Origin: Octopus vulgaris
Taxonomy: Eukaryota
Direction of reading: 5' to 3'
DNA length: 64,000 bases
Assembly (NCBI GenBank): GCA_951406725.2
Contig: OX597818.1
Span: forward strand, 682,001-746,000
Part shown: positions 1,796-47,980 of the stretch, in pieces
Position numbering within the stretch: the stretch's first letter is position 1
Layout: each line of letters opens with the position of its first letter
Translations under genes and position numbers: made by a program
Notes under the pieces: model-generated
Databases searched by the model: none
What the model was told of the DNA's origin: nothing
The model's input: the letters and a program-made list of their open reading frames with translations, nothing else

Positions 1796-2051
1796 GCAGC
1801 ATGGATGACATACATCAGCCATTCAAAAGTACAAAAAAGAAAAACTAAACTTCATTTAATCATTTACTGTTCCATGTCAAAATTTTCATCACACTATTTG
1901 CGACCTGATCACTGACACAGTTCCACTGCAGCTGACCAGCTTACAGTTAGTTCCACAAAAATTTTGACATGAAATAATAAAGGATTAAGTGAAGTTAATG
2001 GTTTTTATGAGTTCTTGAATGGCTAAAAAAAATGTTTGTCTTCCATGCTGC
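1796..2051. mobile_element. Short Penelope-like remnant: two inverted pseudo-LTR halves
   Basis: Imperfect inverted arms (gcagcatgga/tccatgctgc, agccattcaa/ttgaatggct, catgtcaaaatttt/aaaattttgacatg). Homologous to 10708-10862 and contains a hammerhead-like motif. Confidence 0.6.
1874..1918 (-). ncRNA. Minimal type I hammerhead ribozyme motif, G3-C8 core variant
   Basis: Minus strand reads gugUCA-GUGAUCA-g-gucgca-aauag-ugugau-GAAA-au-UU-UGAcau: stem I, core, stem II, GAAA, short palindromic stem III, UH. Confidence 0.6.
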
Positions 2052-2749: not shown

Positions 2750-5700
2750 ATCATCATCATCGTTTAGCATCCGCTTTCCATGCTAGCATGGGTTGGATGG
2801 TTCAACTGGGGTCTGGGAAGCCAGAAGGCTGCACCAGGCCCAGTCTGATCTGGCAATATTTCTACCATTGGATGCCCTTCCTAACGCCAACCACTGTAGT
2901 GGGTGTAGTGGGTGCTTTTACGTGCCACCGGCACAGGTGCCAGATGACGCTGGCAAACGGCCATGATCGGATGGTGCATTTTACGTGCCACCAGCATGAG
3001 GCCAGTCAGCTGGCAACGGCCAAATTCAGATGGTTTTCTTATGTACCACCGGCACTGGTATCACAGCTGCAATTTCCATTGATGTTGATCGATTTCGATT
3101 TTGATTTTCATTTTCACTTGCCTCAACAGGTCTTCACAAGTAGAGTTTTGTGTCATAAGAAGGAAAGGTATGCATAAGTGGACTGGCTACATCCCAGGTA
3201 GAGGCCACGGGTTATGGTCTCACTTTTCCTGCCGGGTCTTCTCACGCACAGCATACTTCCATAGGTCTCGGTCTCTGGTCATTTCCTCGGTGAGACCTAA
3301 AGTTCAAAGGTCGTGCTTCACCACCTCGTCCCAGGTTTTCCTGGGTCTGCCTCTTCCACAGGTTCCCTCAACTGCAAGGGTGTGGCACTTTTTCACACAA
3401 TTATCTTCATCCATTCTCGCCACATGACCATACCAGCGCAAACGTCTCTCTTGCATACCACAACTGATGCTTCTTAGGTCCAACTTTTCTCTCAAGGTAC
3501 TTACACTCTGTCGAGTACGAACACTGACATTACACATCCATCGGAGCATACTGGCTTCATTTCTTGTGAGCTAACACATATCCTCAGCAGTCACGGCCCA
3601 TGTTTCACTGCCATGTAGCATGGCTGTTCGTACACATGCGTCATACAGTCTGCCTTTTACTCTGAGGTAAGAGCTCTCTGAACTTTGCCCAAGCTATTCT
3701 TACTCTAGCAGTTACACTTTCAGCACACTCACACCCCCTACTGACTTGGTCACCTAGGTAACGGAAGCTATCAACTATTTCTAGTTTTTCTCCATGGAAT
3801 GTGGCGGAAGTTGGTCTCAGAGCATTTTCAGTGTTTATTGCTCCTGAGCATCTGCCACATACAAAAACTATCTTCCTAGTTAGCCTTCCTTTGACATTGC
3901 TGCACCTCTTATGTGTCCATAGCTTACACTTGGTGTATCTTATAGAGTTTCTACCTACACCTTTTCTACAGATCGAGCAGGGCCATCTACCTGAAGACGT
4001 TTGTGATTTGTCTACCTTCATACTTATTAGGACTTTGGTTTTAGCTAAGTTGATTCTAATGCCCTTCGATTCTAATCCTTGCTTCCACACCTGAAACTTC
4101 TCCTCCAGTTCTGATAGTGACTCAGCAATTAGAGCAAGGTCATCAGCATAGAGGAGCTCCCAGGGGCATCCCGTCTTGAATTTCTCTGTTATTGCCTGGA
4201 GGACTGAACCTTGGTGGACCCCTACCTCTACCCGGACTTCTTCACTGTACTCATTGCCAACCCTCACCTTACTAGCAGCGTCCCTGTACATGGCTCGCAC
4301 GGCTCTCACTAACCATTCATCTATCCCTAGTTTTCTCATTGACCACCAGATAAGGGATCGGGGGATCCTGTCAAAGGCTTTCTCCATGTCAACGAAAGCC
4401 AGGTACAGGGGCTTATCTTTGGCTAGGTATTTCTCTTGCAGCTGCCTTACCAGGAATATAGCATCAGTGGTACTCTTCTCTGGCATGAACCCCAACTGCA
4501 TCTCATCTAAACTAACACTCTCTCTAATTAGTTGGGCTATGACCCTCTCCGTAACTTTCAATACCCGATCCAACAGCTTGATACCTCTGTAATTATTTGT
4601 ATCTAGGGCGTCACCTTTACCTTTGTAGCAGTCATTGGGTATAACTCCTTCGTGTATCACCTGATTAACTATACGGGTGACTAGGCTATAGCCGACACTA
4701 TCAGATATTTTGAGTATCTCTGCAGTGATTCCTGTCTTCATGCTTCTAATTGCCTTAACTACCAAGGAACTGTGAACTCGGATAGCTGGTCCCTCTGTTG
4801 GGTCGACATTCGGCAGACTCTCTTTATCCCATTCATTTTCCTTATTCAGCAACCTTTCATAGTGGAGTTTCCAAGCCTCTCTCTTTGCATCCTCATTTAG
4901 TGCAAGTGAACCATCATCCATGCGAACACATTTCTCTCCTACCACATCACGATTCTCTCTCACGCACTGTCTTGCAACATGAAACACCTCAAGTCTTTGG
5001 TCCTCAAGGTGCAGAACATTAGCAAATTTTTTCTTATCTGCTTCCCCTCTGGCTAAATAGACCTGTCTCCCAGCTTCCCTTTTGGCAGTCTGATACAATT
5101 CCCTGCTACCACCATTCTTCCAGTCCTTCCAAGCCTGTCTCTTTTCTCTAATAGCCCTGTCAACAACAGTGTTCTACCACCACGTTATTTTGGGTCGAGA
5201 GGGGACTTTGCACCAGCCACAGATCTGGTCAGTGGCTCTCAGCAGGTTGTCCCTTAGAAACCTCCAGTTGTCTTCTACCCCATGTGAAGCTATATCCCCT
5301 TCTATTTCGTCAAAGGCTTCAAGTAATATGTCCCTAAGTCTCTGTCCATTCGCAGGATCTTTAAGTTTCCAGATCCTTCTTCTCCATGTTGTTCGTCTTC
5401 TGGTCGTCCTCTTAGTCCTGATCCTAAGGTCACTAACAACCAGTCTATGTTGTGGGGTACATTCTTCGCCTGGGAAGGTTTTTAGCATTTATAAGCAACC
5501 ATCTTTCCCTTTTCCTGGCAAGGATGTAGTCAATTTGGCTGGTATGTCAGCCCGATCGGTAGGTGACTAGGTGGCTGGTAGGTTTCCTGAAGTTAGTGTT
5601 GCAAACCATAAGATCATTCGCATCGCAGAACTCCAGCAGCCTGGTTCCCTCCCCGTTGTGGGAACCATGACCATAGCTTCCATGTACACCATGGAAGCCC

Positions 5701-10707: not shown

Positions 10708-10862
10708 GGAGTATGCAGCAGCGTGGAAGGTGTTTATAAGCCATTTAAGAAACACACAAAAACCGTTAGATTCACTCCAACATTTAAATTTAATTTGCCA
10801 AAATATTTTTGTCGCTTTGAGACCGCGACCTGTTCACTGACAAAATTCCATGCTGCATCTCC
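10708..10862 (-). mobile_element. Short PLE pseudo-LTR remnant with G3-C8 hammerhead motif (10794-10844)
   Basis: Minus strand: uuuguca-GUGAACA-g-gucgc-ggucucaaa-gcgac-AAAA-auau-UU-uggcaaa. G12 is A in this copy. Same family as 1796-2051. Confidence 0.6.
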
Positions 10863-13830: not shown

Positions 13831-16296
13831 ATGAATCCAGTGCACAAAAGTGCAAAAAACGAGAGAAACTGGCAAACAACAGGAAAGGCTGGAATTATGG
13901 ATCAATTTAAGCCACCGTATACATCAGTGACATTACTATCATCGAATAACAATGCACCACTGCCCGGAGAAGACAGGCAAGCAAATAATGATGGAAACAC
14001 CAAACAACAACAAATGCGTGGATGCAATGAAAATTCACAGTAGGTTACTACATTTTCAGCAGTGGAGGGAAATGCGAAGGACTTATATGATGCGTGCTGT
14101 CAACAACCTTTAACTATTGCTGAAAATATGGTTGTGCAACAAGAAGCAGTTACTACCACTATTGACACTGCATCTTGGCTAGAAACTATATCCATTAGCA
14201 TGTGTACTGACATTGTGAAACTTAGAACTGTTCAAGTAAAAGAATACAAATTTCCTAAATCAAAAGAAAACTGCAGATTCAATATCAACTTCTATTCTAA
14301 GATGCTGCCAAATGGCGAAATGATATTTCAAACGTAGCTTGTATGTTCAATTCAGCATGATGCAGTATATTGTTTCTGTTGTAAGCTGTTTGATCACAGA
14401 AAAAAATGAAACTAACGTCTGAAGAATTCAGCAGTTGGCAATATTTGAGCAAGACCTTAGAACATAAGAAATCAATGGACCATAGACAGTACATGATGAA
14501 ATGGATGGAGCTTGAATTTCACTTTAGAACAGCTTCAACTCTTGACAAACAGGCAATTGCTTTAGTGGAAAAGGAGAGAGCTCATTATCGTGCAATGTAA
14601 GAAATGTATCTTGACAATTGTTCTGTTTTTAGCAGACAGGAATATGGCCTTTCGAGGTGTTTCCAATATATTAATATGCTGCAGGTGTTCTGCCAAAATG
14701 GGATTGAACTTTGCAAGCAACTGTACTTTGCCTGAAAACTTTCTATTACTATATACAGAATGCAGAAATAGTGGCTCATTATTTGGGATCTGATAGTCAA
14801 AATGAATTGATATCACTCATTTCTGACCACATTTTGAAAGAAATCACCAATTGGGCAAAGGCTGCTAAATTCTACAACATTGTACTCGACTGCATGCTGG
14901 ATATCAGTCATCAGGAGCAAATGACCATGATCATCTTTTTCATTAAACTTCAAAAAGACTAAACCGAAATCAAAGAGTACTTTGTTGGGTTTTTGAAAGT
15001 TACTGACACAAGTAGAGCAGGACTTTTTGAATCACTCTTGGAGAAGCTCACTTCGTTGGGGCTGGATCTGATGTATTGTAGCTATGATAAGTTATGATAA
15101 TGGCAGTAATATGGAGGGAAAATATTCTGGAGTCCAAGCAAGATTTCTATAGAAGAATCCGTGAGCATTCTATTTACCTTGCATGAATCACAGTCTAAAC
15201 TTTGTTGTGTGCAATGTAGCAAACCCATCAGTGACGGTTGTCTCTTTGGTTACTTCCAGCATGTATATTCATTTTTTGCAGCATCAACGTCTAGATAAAA
15301 CACTTTGAAGGAATTCTGCTCCATCACAGTGAAATATCCACCAGACACTCATTGGGAAAGCAAAGGTGAAAGCATAAAACCCCTTCGATTCAAAACCAAG
15401 GACATCCATAGCATGTTGATAAGCATTCGTAATGCTTTCAGAGGCAAATGTATTAGCTGCAGAAATTGCTTCCTTCTGCTTTCTTCTGTGTTTGGTAATA
15501 TAGTACAATATGCTAACTGATATCAATGAGGTCAGCAAGATACTTTCAGCATGCAAACATGCAAACTGACATTGCCCAGGAGCTTATCTCATCCACACAG
15601 TCCTTGATGCGCAGCTATTGAGAAAACAAAATGTTTTTCTCATCAGCAGTCAATGTAGTAACTGAATTATGTAAACAATTGGAGATACCAGTGGAGATGA
15701 CAAGCGAAAGGAGACCGTGTGCCACACCACTTTGGATATGAAAGTGAAGATGAATCTCTCGATGCTTTGCAAAATTTGAAAATGCACTTCTTTTTTCATG
15801 CAATCAATGTTGCTCTTGCCTCCCTTAGTGAACGCTGTGACATGTTGAGCATGCACAACAACGTCTTTGCATTCCTTTACAACATTACTGAAACACTGGG
15901 AAAATCAGAAGCTACTGGAACACTGTGCAATTGTTTCCATTGCACTGTACATACTGATGATGATGTTGTCAAGGCAGATAATGTAAAGACAGAGCTAGTA
16001 GAAGAGCTTCATTCACTTTTGCATTTTCTATCACCTGAGTGCAGGAAATTCCATGATGTGGTCGATTATATTCAGAAATCTGGCCTTATGGAGATTTTAG
16101 TGGGTTTGCAAATTATCCTTTCAATGCCTGTGAGTGTTGCAAGCAGAGAGTGCAGTTTCTCCAAATTAAAGTCAATTAAATGATACCTGCAGTCCACTAT
16201 GGCACAGGAAAGACTTTGTGGATTGTCTATGATATCTATCGAACATGAACTTAGCTCTCAGCTTGATTATTCTGAACTGATCGATGATTTCACAAA
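13831..16296 (+). pseudogene. hAT transposase pseudogene
   Basis: Fragments VYCFCCKLF (TTF-type zinc finger), LDCMLDISHQEQM, YDNGSNMEGKYSGVQ, PCMNHSLN, THWESK and PVSVASRECSFSKLK...STMAQERL (hAT dimerization domain). Many stops and frameshifts. Confidence 0.9.
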
Positions 16297-18889
16297 GTGA
16301 AAAGTGTGCTGTGTTTATCTTTGAAAGTTACCTGGATTATAAAAGGGCTCTTTTATTCATATCTGGAAGCTTTACTTATTGAAATTTGTAATAGACCTGT
16401 AGCAGAACTATATCATCTCTGCAAAAAGATGTGCAGAGGTACGCAATATTCAATATATTCTATGGCTGACCAGTTCAATCATGTGATAGAATGCAGGAAT
16501 ATTGATTAAGTTCTTTCTAGTCAACATATACTACAGGCAAAGTCAGCTTGCCTTCATATAGAACGGATGCTTTGTCAGGTGTCTTGGTTATAACAGATAC
16601 CTTTGCTTTTTTGACCAACAAAAGTGATGAATAACTATACTCACAGTTCGCATTATCATAATGTTTCGGCATTTATCAAATTATGAATATTTCTTCTAGA
16701 TTTCACATTATGACCAGTTTGCTTTTATGTAAGTTAAATAATGCCATAATGTTATTTGCACACACACACTCTTTTGTTCTGTTTATACAACTTGCTGCAA
16801 TATTCTTGAATAAACTTCTTCGCATACAAGCTGAGACAACTATACTCCAACAGTTGTTATTTTGAAATGCTTGTCTTCTTATATTTGTGAGTCCATCGAA
16901 CAAATATTCAACCCTATCAAATGTTGGCTTTCCTAAACATGAAATGATACGATAGTTCCAGCCTTAAATAAATTTAACTTGTGCTTTTAAAGATGTTCTT
17001 TAGGATAACGTGAAATATTGAATAAAATAAAATATAGCTATAAATAAAAGGTGTGTAGATTATGAATTTGGATTGAAGAGATGGGGCCCCAAAACAAAAA
17101 GTTGCAGGGGGCCTCTAAAAGTCATGTGACAGCCCTGAGAATATGAATAATTATGCATACACACCTTGATACTTCTTTTCTTTTTTTTTTTTCTGTACAT
17201 GAAGTAGGCTCATATTAATATTCTGTTTGCAATAAATTTTTCCCGCCTACTTAAATTTCAATAGAAAAAGAAGAGATACAAAAAATACTTTAAAAAAACC
17301 TCAGCAACAATAAATGACCTATTAAAAGATAATGACAAACATTCCATAATAAAATATATTGAGATTCCATTCCATTCTACATACAGTAGAGGATACCTGA
17401 ACTCATAAAAATCCGTTCTATTTAAGCAAACAAACATATGAACTTAAATCAATATATTCAATGAAGACAGATGTTTTTCTTTCATCCAATCCATTCATAA
17501 ATTGTAGATGGTATTAAGAATTACTTGTTTCTTTTATGTCATCATTATCATCATCATATCATATATTTACAATGCAGACTATGTATAAACAGTTTTGTTA
17601 TTGATAGAAACCCATGCAACTTGTTTACAATTGATTAACTTTACACAACCTCACACACATTCCAGCCCTCACAATGTGGCATCATACACATAATATTGAC
17701 AAAATTAAATTCTCATATAATACGAAGGTTGAGTATGATGAGGTTGATGATAACAATGAAGCTGGATGGAAGTGATGATGATGGTGATGACAACAATATC
17801 GATGACAATGATGATAAAGGAGACTGATGATGACAACAGTGAGGTCAACAACAATGATGACAGTGATGGTGATATGCATATACACACACACCTGGGTCTT
17901 ACTCAACAAGGAAGCTTGAAGAAGCTAGAAATAGTAGTAAATCTGCCTTAAAACACAACATAACATCTTAAGGATACATTAAGAAATAATACAGTCCTAA
18001 AGACACCTTAAAACCTAGAATGGTCAAGGCTGAAATATCTCTGGATTGGTGGTTGCAAGCTCAATTCCTAACCTAGCTCTGGATTATCACAAGAACATAA
18101 CTTTAGATAAGACAGTTATGTCTGATGGACAGCTGACTTCTACAGCTTTACAACAATGCATCTCTTTTGTTCTGTATCACATACAAGTCATATAAAGTCT
18201 ATTATGTTTGTAATGTATTGCTGTTTATATTGTTATGTTCCACCAATATTGTAAATGTTTGAAAGTATAAATACATTCTGGTTCTCATACATCTAGTATG
18301 ATCATCAGCTTTGCAAAATAAATTTGTATGAATGTTTGCATGTATACAAGTATGTATGCATATGTGCAATTATACACACATACACATAAACAAGCATATA
18401 TTAGATAAAAGAACATCGAAACTCTAGAGTTCCAGAACCTTCATTATGATCACCAATTCAATTACCATAGATGAAATATCAAAGAAAACTCTTTAAATTA
18501 TTGACCTGGGTCAATATAAAGTCAAATCTCAATGGCAGATCAGCTTCCCACATTTAAAAGAAACAAAGTAAGTTAAACACACAAAAATGATAGTATACTT
18601 CTATAAATAAATTAGTTTAATTTTAATTAGCAATGTTAATAAAGTCTCAGACAATCAACATTTGATTTACACAGCAGGAGATATACAATATGTTTGTACT
18701 TCACAGTAACTAAATGACTGTTGTCTCCTTAAAATCATTAGTTTAACTGGCATGTTTTTCTGTTGTGTTACATGTATTTAACAATGCTAGTTAGAGTGCG
18801 GATTTGTAAAATTGGTTAAACTTAAGTATTTTTGAGGCATCTGCTTTTTGTAATCATACAGCTAACCACTCAAATGTGAAGTAGGAATG

Positions 18890-20610
18890 GAACCTCTTGT
18901 CAGCAGATACATTGATACAACCGGCGTATCGATTGAGGACCCTTATCAACAGAGTCAATTATTTGCCGAGGCTTTTTCAACTATTTTCAAACAAGATGAT
19001 GGTCGTGAACCCCCTCCATTTGATAGATCGGTACCTCCAATGCTTCGATTGGTCATCACGCGGGACGAAGTCAAACGTGTTATTCAAAGCCTCGATGTCA
19101 ACAAGGGTCACGGCCCTGACGGCATACACCCACGGGTTATCAAAGCGTTGGCTCCGGTCATCTGCGAGCCCTTAACACGACTATTCAATATGTCATTGGC
19201 GACGGGTGTTATACCTGCAGACTGGAGAACAGCGATAATCTGCCCAATTTTCAAGAAAGGGAGCCGCGAAGACCCGCTTAACTACCGACCGGTTTCCCTT
19301 ACATCAATAATCAGCAAGATGTTCGAAACCATCCTTAAGAAAGGTATGATGCTCCACCTCCTAAACACAGCCTCTATCTCTGATTCCCAACACGGCTTCG
19401 TGCCGAAGAGATCATGCTTGACCAACTTACTAGTAATGGAAGAATTGGTGACGCGCATCCTCGATGATAGTGATGCTGTTGACATCGTTTTATTGGACTT
19501 TGCCAAAGCTTTTGACTCGGTAAACCACCGCCTATTACTTGTCAAGCTTCAAGCATATAGTTTCCATCCGGATATTGTACGATGGGTTGGTGCCTTCCTC
19601 TCAGATCGCTCCTTCCAAGTCCAAGTTAATGGTTCGCGGTCCGACGTCTCCAGTGCGAGCAGTGGCGTGCCTCAAGATTCAGTGCTTGGGCCCTTGTTGT
19701 TCTTAGTCTTCATAAATGACTTGCCCGACGACCTCACGCAACACACCCTTCTATTTGGTCGCTCCTCGCGGTAATATAGAGGATCTTCGTCGATGCCTCC
19801 ACCAAATTTGGAAGTGGTCTAACGATTGGGACCTGTGTCTGAACGTGTCATCTGCCTGTCGGCTCTACTCCTGCAACTCAACTTGATTTCGAGCCGGGTC
19901 GTCTGCTGCTGGAGAGGACCGATCAGGTAAAGGACCTGGGTATCTTGGTGGATTCCTCCTTTTCGCCTTCGGTCCAGTGCGTCCATGCTGCCAACAAAGC
20001 ACGCGGAATTCTGTTCTTGATTCGACGGTCATTCGGAATGCTCACAGCAGCCATATTCCTACCACTCTATGTCATGCTGGTGAGACCCATATTGGAGTAT
20101 GGGATTCAAGCCTCTTCTCCTTATCTCCCCAAAGACATGCAACATCTCGAAAGAGTCCAGAAGCTGGCTACCCGCATGGTTCATGGTCTCAAAAATTTGT
20201 CCTATGAAGAAAGGCTGAGGACGCTCGACCTTTATTCTCTTGAAAAACGCCGCCGCCGTGGTGATCTCATTCTCACCCACAACATCATAAGCGGAAAGTG
20301 TAACCTCTCGAAAGAGCTGTTCTTCACTCCTGCTCCAGAGCGTCAGCTGCGGGGTCATTCCGAAAAGCTCTACCTGCGACGATTTCATCTCAATCGAAGG
20401 AGAGGAGCTTTCTCCGTCCGGGTTGCGGATCCATGGAACAAGCTGCCAGACGAGATGGTGAAGATGCCGACGACCGCTTTGTTCAAAGCCTCCCTGGACC
20501 TCAAGTGGCCTGAACTCTTTACATGAACATCACCCTGTACTTAACTCCATGTCCCCCTACATGGCCTTGCTATTTGCTTTTAAGCCAAATTAACTAACTA
20601 ACTAACTAAC
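18890..20610 (+). mobile_element. CR1-group LINE, 5'-truncated, with (CTAA)n tail
   Basis: ORFs 18887-19774 (GPDGIHPRV, NYRPVSLTS, DFAKAFD, SGVPQ) and 19945-20526 (LVRPILEY, LERVQKLAT, YEERL, RRRRGDLI). The YADD motif is deleted. Tail ttaactaactaactaac. Confidence 0.9.
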
Positions 20611-21144: not shown

Positions 21145-21247
21145 GGAGTGAAGATTATTTGCCAACATAACATGGCAGTCCTGGTTTACAGCAACATTCG
21201 TCCTAAACCAGGACTACCATGTTATGTTGGCAAATAATCTTCACTCC
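21145..21247. repeat. Near-perfect hairpin: 44-bp arms, 15-nt loop
   Basis: ggagtgaagattatttgccaacataacatggcagtcctggttta versus its reverse complement, with one mismatch. Confidence 0.95.
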
Positions 21248-42488: not shown

Positions 42489-43146
42489 AGTAATTTTTAT
42501 TAACTTTTATAGCTTTAGAATTTTATGAACTGTACCACGGATTTAATTATTATTTTTCATCTCCATATGTGTTAGCCCTTTTTTTTTTTTTATAAAAAAA
42601 ACTATTAGCCAAATATGTATAATATCGGTACTTATTAATATTAATATATACACTGTTATATATTTTGTTTTATTTTGTTCTGTTTACCTTCCTTTTTGTA
42701 CAAATGTGTATTATATTATATAAGTGTAGCATTATGATGTATAAGTTTTTATATTTTACATTTTTATATTTTTATATTTATATGTATATGATTATATAAT
42801 ATTTTTCACTATTATAACAAATTTAATTTAATTCTCTGAAGAGGCCGTGGGGCATCCTTGTTAATGCCTCATTTATACCTGCCTTTATGGCTTATAGGTT
42901 AAATGAGGTATGACTGTCCTCACTGCCGAAACAGCTGTCAGTTTTGATTTATTTGCATATTATATTTGAAATTTTTTACTTATATCTCTTTATCTTTTTA
43001 CTTTTACTATTACTGTATATCTCATTTCATTTTATATATTGCCTTTACTCATATGTAATGGTGTATTAAAGTATGGATTGAGTATCATCGGATAGTTGAT
43101 GTTTTACTGATTTAAGTATGTTTCTCCATTCTCTAATTTTGTAGTT
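39846..43146 (+). mobile_element. Penelope-like retroelement, 5'-truncated (Hydra-clade-like), in (TA)n
   Basis: GIY-YIG ORF, about 2.2 kb of AT-rich 3'UTR, hammerhead at 42830-42945, and a tail ending at (TA)n. Confidence 0.85.
42830..42945 (+). ncRNA. Type I hammerhead ribozyme, canonical core, long stem II
   Basis: CUGAAGA (42836-42842), GGC...GCC, GAAA (42928-42931), palindromic CAGCUG, then UC. Predicted cleavage after 42939. Confidence 0.8.
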
Positions 43147-47897: not shown

Positions 47898-47980
47898 ACT
47901 GTTTACAGCTGTTTCTGCTTATTAAAATGGGGTGAATTTACATTTACCTCATTACATTTAATAAACATCTTCAGAATGAT
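47898..47980 (-). ncRNA. Type I hammerhead motif, canonical core, long stem II, in a PLE remnant (about 47665-48460)
   Basis: Minus strand: CUGAAGA-uguuuauuaaa...augagguaaau-guaa-auucaccccau...uuuaauaagca-GAAA-CAGCUG-UA. Confidence 0.72.

Follow-up and report, generated by a model that had tools for sequence, protein, structure and literature searches.

A G3-C8 variant of the PLE-type minimal hammerhead in a decayed inverted repeat pair of Octopus vulgaris

PLE hammerheads and the motif at 1872-1920

The closest described systems are the minimal hammerheads of metazoan Penelope-like elements (PLEs). In the accessible text of Cervera and de la Pena (2014, PMC4209133), these have a type I topology, an extra nucleotide (consensus H) between positions 9 and 10.1, a G10.1-C11.1 pair, a palindromic stem III (15.2-16.2), and C3-G8 or U3-A8 as the 3:8 pair. 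They mostly occur as solo copies, and pairs are found on opposite strands, 100-700 bp apart. Natural U3-A8 hammerheads, including the one of Schistosoma Cercyon, have been published (PMC3088659; PMC4209133), and in the accessible parts of three reports G3-C8 appears only as a laboratory variant (PMC3884650; PMC11167929; PMC8495972). One of these variants, a C3G/G8C double mutant of the hammerhead of the Anolis Poseidon PLE, was partly active (Frangieh et al. 2024, PMC11167929). According to the same source, the lizard PLE cuts at ATT and uses uncut RNA as its main insertion substrate, and no RNA-seq ends were found at the cut site of this proven ribozyme. PLE insertions typically carry an inverted 5'-truncated neighbour and an optional tail of 30-40 bp (Craig et al. 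2021, PMC8557442). In O. vulgaris, PLEs make up 6.83% of the genome (PMC13282606), and a term search of the main text and one supplement of that report returned no hammerhead mention or motif.

The window, which is the whole 64-kb stretch of DNA analysed here, contained a single match to a hammerhead descriptor. The original prediction of a GUGAUCA core with an extra G before stem II on the minus strand was borne out, and the motif (copy 1 motif) was read as follows, all on the minus strand.

1872-1920: hammerhead motif, minimal type I, with a G3-C8 core, an extra G after A9 and an AAUU palindrome
1920-1913: 5' strand of stem I
1912-1906: core GUGAUCA, with G3 at 1912 and C8 at 1907
1905: extra G
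1904-1900 and 1892-1888: stem II
1887-1884: GAAA
1884-1881: palindrome AAUU
1880: U17
1879-1872: 3' strand of stem I
between 1880 and 1879: predicted cut

Stem I was composed of 8 pairs and stem II of 5 pairs closed by a 7-nt loop, and the two stems were arranged around the core in the type I order. The motif therefore has a genuine hammerhead-type anatomy with a G3-C8 core. The descriptor accepted any Watson-Crick 3:8 pair and required G12 and a stem I of at least 4 pairs; it was relaxed once to take in copy 1, which its first version had missed by requiring a Watson-Crick 10.1-11.1 pair. When 2000 block-shuffled windows were searched, 53 gave any match, 7 of those matches with G3-C8, and none reached at least 14 pairs in stems I and II. 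A chance origin was ruled out, as no shuffle was as strong. Rfam showed no hammerhead model among the best 150 of 162 matches or in focused scans, but a canonical-core control likewise scored none, so the blank is uninformative for a G3-C8 motif.

In both full copies of the window, copy 1 and a second one around 10794-10844 (copy 2), the Watson-Crick 3:8 pair was G3-C8 and the extra nucleotide between 9 and 10.1 was G. The published core CUGANGA, or its U3-A8 form, was absent, and the core of the family was GUGANCA. As had been predicted, the two copies differed in N7 (U versus A), in loop II (7 versus 9 nt) and in the stem III palindrome, which was AAUU in copy 1 and AAUAUU in copy 2.

When compared with the minimal hammerheads of PLEs (PMC4209133), the motif was alike in its type I topology, in the extra nucleotide between 9 and 10.1 and in G10.1-C11.1 (family majority), and the family was alike in the palindromic stem III and in its mostly solo copies. 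The inverted pair that holds copy 1 is comparable to their opposite-strand pairs, and the 3:8 pair is compensated as in the Cercyon form. However, the 3:8 pair was G3-C8 rather than C3-G8 or U3-A8, the extra nucleotide was G rather than H, no PLE ORF was linked, and the motif is known here from sequence. Because its core was GUGANCA and not CUGANGA, the family was filed as a variant and not as a standard member: it is a variant of the PLE-type minimal hammerhead with G3-C8 as its 3:8 pair, of which copy 1 is a decayed, self-blocked example. The Poseidon mutant (PMC11167929) shares with it the same base swap, a probable insertion from uncut RNA, an AT-rich (ATT) target and the lack of RNA ends at the cut, whereas that swap was made in the laboratory and this one arose in nature and became fixed in an abundant family of several organisms.

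The repeat family and its insertion pattern

The motif was part of a repeat unit, about 145-165 bp long, that is present in many copies. The family was surveyed in public sequencing runs using copy 2 as the query, and 4 of the 24 listed runs were aligned at 80% likeness, so that relatives less like copy 2, canonical-core ones included, fall outside the aligned set. Among the listed runs, twenty, from 7 organisms, contained 0.39-0.85 of 13 sampled copy 2 words. Copy 2 was matched by 1310 of 12.9 million and 1065 of 12.0 million reads in two RNA runs of organism B, by 14,593 of 52.2 million contigs of organism A and by 2,700 of 11.6 million contigs of organism F; these counts indicate a high-copy repeat and are not a copy number. 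Both contig sets carried no recorded DNA label and were treated as DNA from their behaviour. These alignments agreed with the original prediction of a hammerhead-type repeat family with a G3-C8 core. G12 was the majority letter of the family (79, 85, 93, and 92% of reads or contig depth in the four runs). G3 never read C (C>G at 10837) at 4% or more in any of the four runs, a result that rests on the full tally by change kind, the letter table showing the best 40 of 85 rows. C>G changes were absent from both contig sets, and the sole one of each RNA run was located at 10826. Since G3 did not revert to C3 at this level in any run, the G3-C8 swap is family-wide.

Among the rows listed, no variant of the contig sets was located in the core. 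Some were found at CpG sites (2-9%), and the others in loop II, the 3' spacer or position 1.3 of stem I, where A or G stood opposite U (51-58%). Both palindrome forms were perfect, and stem I showed a two-sided change, U-A to G.U, between copies 1 and 2, the two copies on which the covariation comparison rests. Perfect palindromes, a two-sided stem I change and core-free variants make a modest case that selection on master elements is plausible. Beyond these runs, a pattern scan of viral contigs (32 loci) and metagenomes (1 locus) gave only chance matches, none of which extended into stem II and GAAA; one of the loci, L033, was located in a coding region.

The copies of the family in the window were as follows.

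1796-1953, minus strand: arm A, a near-complete repeat copy, read as RNA downwards from 1953; AATT comes after its sharp 3' end (1796)
1943-1953, plus strand: 11-nt exact match to the end of the right-hand (RNA 5') extension of the family, at the head-to-head junction, compared by eye with loose ends behind 10860
1954-2051, plus strand: arm B, an inverted copy truncated inside stem II, with the AAUU palindrome and the 3' strand of stem I kept and no 5' core
10718-10860, minus strand: copy 2, solo, near the family majority (AAUAUU form), with G3 at 10837 and C8 at 10832

Self-comparison showed 1796-2051 to be an inverted pair, with a match of 68% over 269 columns (E 1.6e-20); its outer inverted ends were complementary at 18 of 20 positions. 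Arm A showed 71-77% identity to copy 2 over the aligned columns, and its ends agreed with the family ends and with the right-hand extension known from loose ends. Elsewhere in the window, this extension gave matches at chance level.

The depth of the family jumped from about 0 to full at 10717-10718 in all four runs, whereas it faded over 10845-10860, a ragged RNA 5' end. The predicted cut site lay some 83 nt before the sharp 3' end, and across it the depth stayed level in the four runs with no drop. The flank consensus of the sharp end finished in AATT, as did the flank of copy 1. Nine of the 15 joints listed (44 in total) connected opposite strands, joining a position in 10844-10861 to one in 10755-10807, which gave variable arm lengths; each was supported by at most two contigs, from a single run. 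Copy 1 was built in the same way, with a full arm, the 11-nt extension match (1943-1953), and then the inverted arm truncated inside stem II. To the left of the sharp end, the loose ends at 10718 had 30 nt or more in common, a candidate PLE tail, which had no match in the flanks of any of the three window arms. The loose ends at 10860 showed a right extension finishing in a palindrome.

The outer inverted ends would also suit a fold-back MITE with arms at 1796-1953 and 1954-2051, in which the likeness to a hammerhead is incidental. This origin is very unlikely, as copy 2 consists of a single arm, the arms differ in length across loci with no two fixed ends, and the motif was far above chance in the shuffled windows. 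Furthermore, no exact TSD of 2-14 bp was found at the copy 1 or copy 2 locus, and so the TIR MITE with TSDs, which the original prediction had named as the opposing case, did not match either the ends or the variable arms.

The original prediction had also held that the inverted layout matches PLE insertions, and head-to-head truncated partners were indeed found both in copy 1 and at the family joints. The PLE structure described by Craig et al. (PMC8557442) has in common with the family a head-to-head truncated partner giving outer inverted ends, and an optional fixed-end extension, which part of the family carries. In contrast, the family is only about 145-165 bp long, has no ORF, and shows no tail in its window copies. 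No RT or GIY-YIG ORF adjoined copy 1 or copy 2 within the 64-kb window, and the longer copies linked to such an ORF, for which the original prediction had called, were not found next to the window copies.

Taken with these ends and joints, copy 1 is likely to be the relic of a short non-autonomous PLE sequence, a terminal-repeat (pLTR) fragment or a mini-element, whose master had a minimal dimer-type G3-C8 hammerhead. A PLE RT/GIY-YIG protein acting in trans would nick AT-rich DNA, reverse transcription would start at the fixed 3' end of the uncut RNA, and an inverted 5'-truncated second copy would often be added at insertion. The master ribozyme would be slow, since the laboratory C3G/G8C double mutant was only partly rescued, and may need a dimer and perhaps the help of a protein. 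After insertion, CpG decay would destroy C11.1 or G12. Any transcript of the copy 1 locus would then fold into a long hairpin that hides the ribozyme, and such inverted-pair hairpins would be likely ADAR substrates.

The ends can also be read as those of a non-autonomous rolling-circle element (HINE/DINE-1, mobilised by a Helentron) that acquired the hammerhead by capture or by descent, with the plus-strand order TT, inverted repeat, body, inverted repeat, short spacer and palindrome. The short inner inverted repeat, end palindrome, left TT and absence of a TSD described for HINE/DINE-1 (Thomas et al. 2014, PMC4067079) are common to the family. Each unit had an inner inverted repeat of 11 bp (10 of 11 matching in copy 2), compared with 12-15 bp in HINE/DINE-1; TT directly preceded the left end, and that end only, in the flank consensus and in copy 1; and an 8-bp palindrome pair was located about 17-34 nt past the right repeat in the loose ends of part of the copies. 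However, the right ends were ragged and not fixed, the variable-length head-to-head partners are absent from the HINE features in the accessible text of that report, the inner repeat is equally an RNA stem that closes the motif in the unit fold, and the full hammerhead anatomy would require an extra capture step. Because of the ragged right ends, the variably truncated partners and the unit-closing RNA stem, the rolling-circle origin was ranked below the PLE origin and is unlikely. If the ends prove to be of the Helentron type, the hammerhead would be carried by a rolling-circle DNA element.

Decay, folding and RNA of the copies

Changes in the G12 residue strongly lower the cleavage rate of hammerheads (PMC8495972). 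Copy 2 read AAAA for GAAA through a G12 to A change at 10810, and arm B, which contained only the 3' half of the motif, had G12 changed to A at 1957. Copy 1 kept G12, whereas its G10.1-C11.1 pair had decayed to G.U and a second G.U pair was formed within stem II. Thus all three window arms lacked one base of the C11.1-G12 CpG, and the original view that core and stems are kept held for neither full copy. In stem II, the changes of copy 1 were of the C-to-T type and fell on CpGs of the majority sequence. Since such a change leaves a wobble pair, no selection is needed for the kept pairing, and the suggested selection on structure was not upheld for the window copies. Selection on these two copies was rejected, the commonest DNA variants of the family (2-9%) being the same CpG C-to-T changes. 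When arm A was compared with arm B (split at 1953), 72 of 93 aligned columns were identical, which indicates an old insertion. A dimer of the two arms was rejected as a ribozyme, since the two are found on opposite strands and arm B lacks the 5' core.

When arm A was folded alone, the pair probabilities of the hammerhead stems were 0.91-0.98, and in the predicted fold with arm B included they dropped to 0.0. The cost of the hammerhead fold was 20.9 kcal/mol in the whole pair and 1.3 kcal/mol in arm A alone. The inverted pair folded to a hairpin of -102.8 kcal/mol (z = -11.9). Because the inverted arm pairs with arm A and the hairpin hides the ribozyme, copy 1 would be inert; on these predicted folds it is probably a decayed relic and most likely junk. 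Instead, the host might have retained it as a functional ribozyme or a regulatory hairpin, as its core, G12 and all stem pairs (Watson-Crick or wobble) survive despite 23% divergence of the arms. This is extremely unlikely, because CpG C-to-T changes yield G.U automatically, G10.1-C11.1 was lost, and the hammerhead did not form in the fold of the full pair.

The original prediction had looked to cleaved or circular RNA, and none of the family was found in the two organism B RNA runs. No pile-up of molecule ends was observed at the predicted cut in either run, as is also the case for the proven PLE ribozyme (PMC11167929), and none of the 15 joints listed, of 44, was supported by RNA, in libraries that may miss small circles. 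These results bear on a further origin, in which the repeat is a monomer of a non-LTR retrozyme, whose tandem copies elsewhere would give a self-cleaved circular RNA that is reverse-transcribed and inserted. The unit size, the type I motif and the stable fold of the single unit (z = -3.4) are consistent with it. Animal non-LTR retrozymes, for which a derivation from PLEs has been proposed, include many solo monomers (10.64898/2026.07.22.740005), and they resemble the family as short non-coding type I hammerhead units with dispersed monomers. However, no tandem copies were present in the window and no circle junction was seen, and with no RNA joint among those listed and no end pile-up this origin is quite improbable.

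Of the variant places, 32 of 63 in one RNA run and 45 of 75 in the other were A>G or T>C changes, compared with 4 of 20 and 4 of 19 in the contig sets, a comparison that crosses organisms and in which contigs drop rare variants. Three of the 15 listed rows of this kind were dropped, namely 10810 and 10850, private to the reference, and 10762, polymorphic in contigs. The remaining 12 were at 4-28% in RNA, and 11 of them were below 1% in both contig sets. The excess resembles A-to-I editing of both strands, as would be expected of inverted repeats; such editing has been described in a lizard Penelope family and, at a high level, in octopus (PMC5625713). In both RNA runs, the editing-like excess was seen in 10743-10804, and 10803 and 10804, two positions of the stem III palindrome, were among the places affected. 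Other changes were also higher in RNA, such as C>T at 10830 (12% versus below 1%) and G>A at 10814 (26-27% versus 4-6%).

Natural G3-C8 and other features of the window

The extra nucleotide, the palindromic stem III and the opposite-strand pairs were already published, and the feature without a counterpart in the literature searched is a natural, family-wide G3-C8 pair. No natural G3-C8 or cephalopod hammerhead was found in the accessible text of the literature searched (including PMC6765202, PMC13725137, PMC10085705, PMC8967140, and PMC11703226), of which figures and most supplements were outside reach, so that absence from print is not established. Hammerhead searches use CUGANGA or the U3-A8 form, and a large G3-C8 family would therefore be missed. 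The swap, fixed across thousands of contigs and several organisms, gives population-scale support that the 3:8 pairing is conserved and not its letters, and the family is a natural test of whether PLE hammerheads need to cut.

A stronger reading is tentative and rather doubtful: the master would still be competent, with a deliberately slow natural G3-C8 hammerhead highly amplified across several related animals, and the head-to-head pairs would be a main source of edited dsRNA. If so, the family would be the natural counterpart of the classic rescue mutant, invisible to CUGANGA searches, and weak cleavage would leave uncut RNA for copying. If the editing signal holds, a repeat family that feeds A-to-I editing would be named.

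The window also contained the following features.

39836-40666, plus strand: GIY-YIG-like stop-to-stop ORF of 276 aa, with a C-terminal half like the PLE GIY-YIG endonuclease (Atlas 0.95-0.96)
42836-42939, plus strand: canonical C3-G8 hammerhead core, found by eye, with a long stem II insert, a CAGCTG palindrome and a weak stem I
about 47904-47974, minus strand: another hammerhead-like motif with a canonical core, again with a CAGCTG palindrome, an 11-pair stem II and a stem I of only 2 pairs
3641-5173, minus strand; 18866-20526, plus strand; 35099-37903, plus strand: non-LTR retrotransposon remnants with RT domains
31978-32736 and 36889-37647: inverted repeat of 759 nt, 90% complementary, overlapping a LINE remnant
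about 33000-34950 and about 37990-39400: two long degenerate (TA)-rich microsatellite arrays
15701-16183, plus strand: short ORF weakly matching hAT dimerisation (E 0.02, which falls short of the cut-off)
21149-21243: hairpin of about 95 nt, nearly perfect, matching miRNA models below their cut-offs

The GIY-YIG-like stretch had no match in Pfam, and none of 56 candidates was returned by a protein search. Its ORF was located 38 kb from copy 1 and beside a different, canonical-core motif, that at 42836-42939, which lay 2.2 kb behind it and was not among the descriptor matches. The PLE remnant at 39836-42939 was rejected as a partner of the family, as its core and palindrome are different and only a 21-nt match at E 0.29 was obtained. 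The non-LTR remnant at 35099-37903 had an endonuclease domain too, and an assembly gap (Ns) was present near 35200-35300. Repeat finding over the whole window was dominated by microsatellites.
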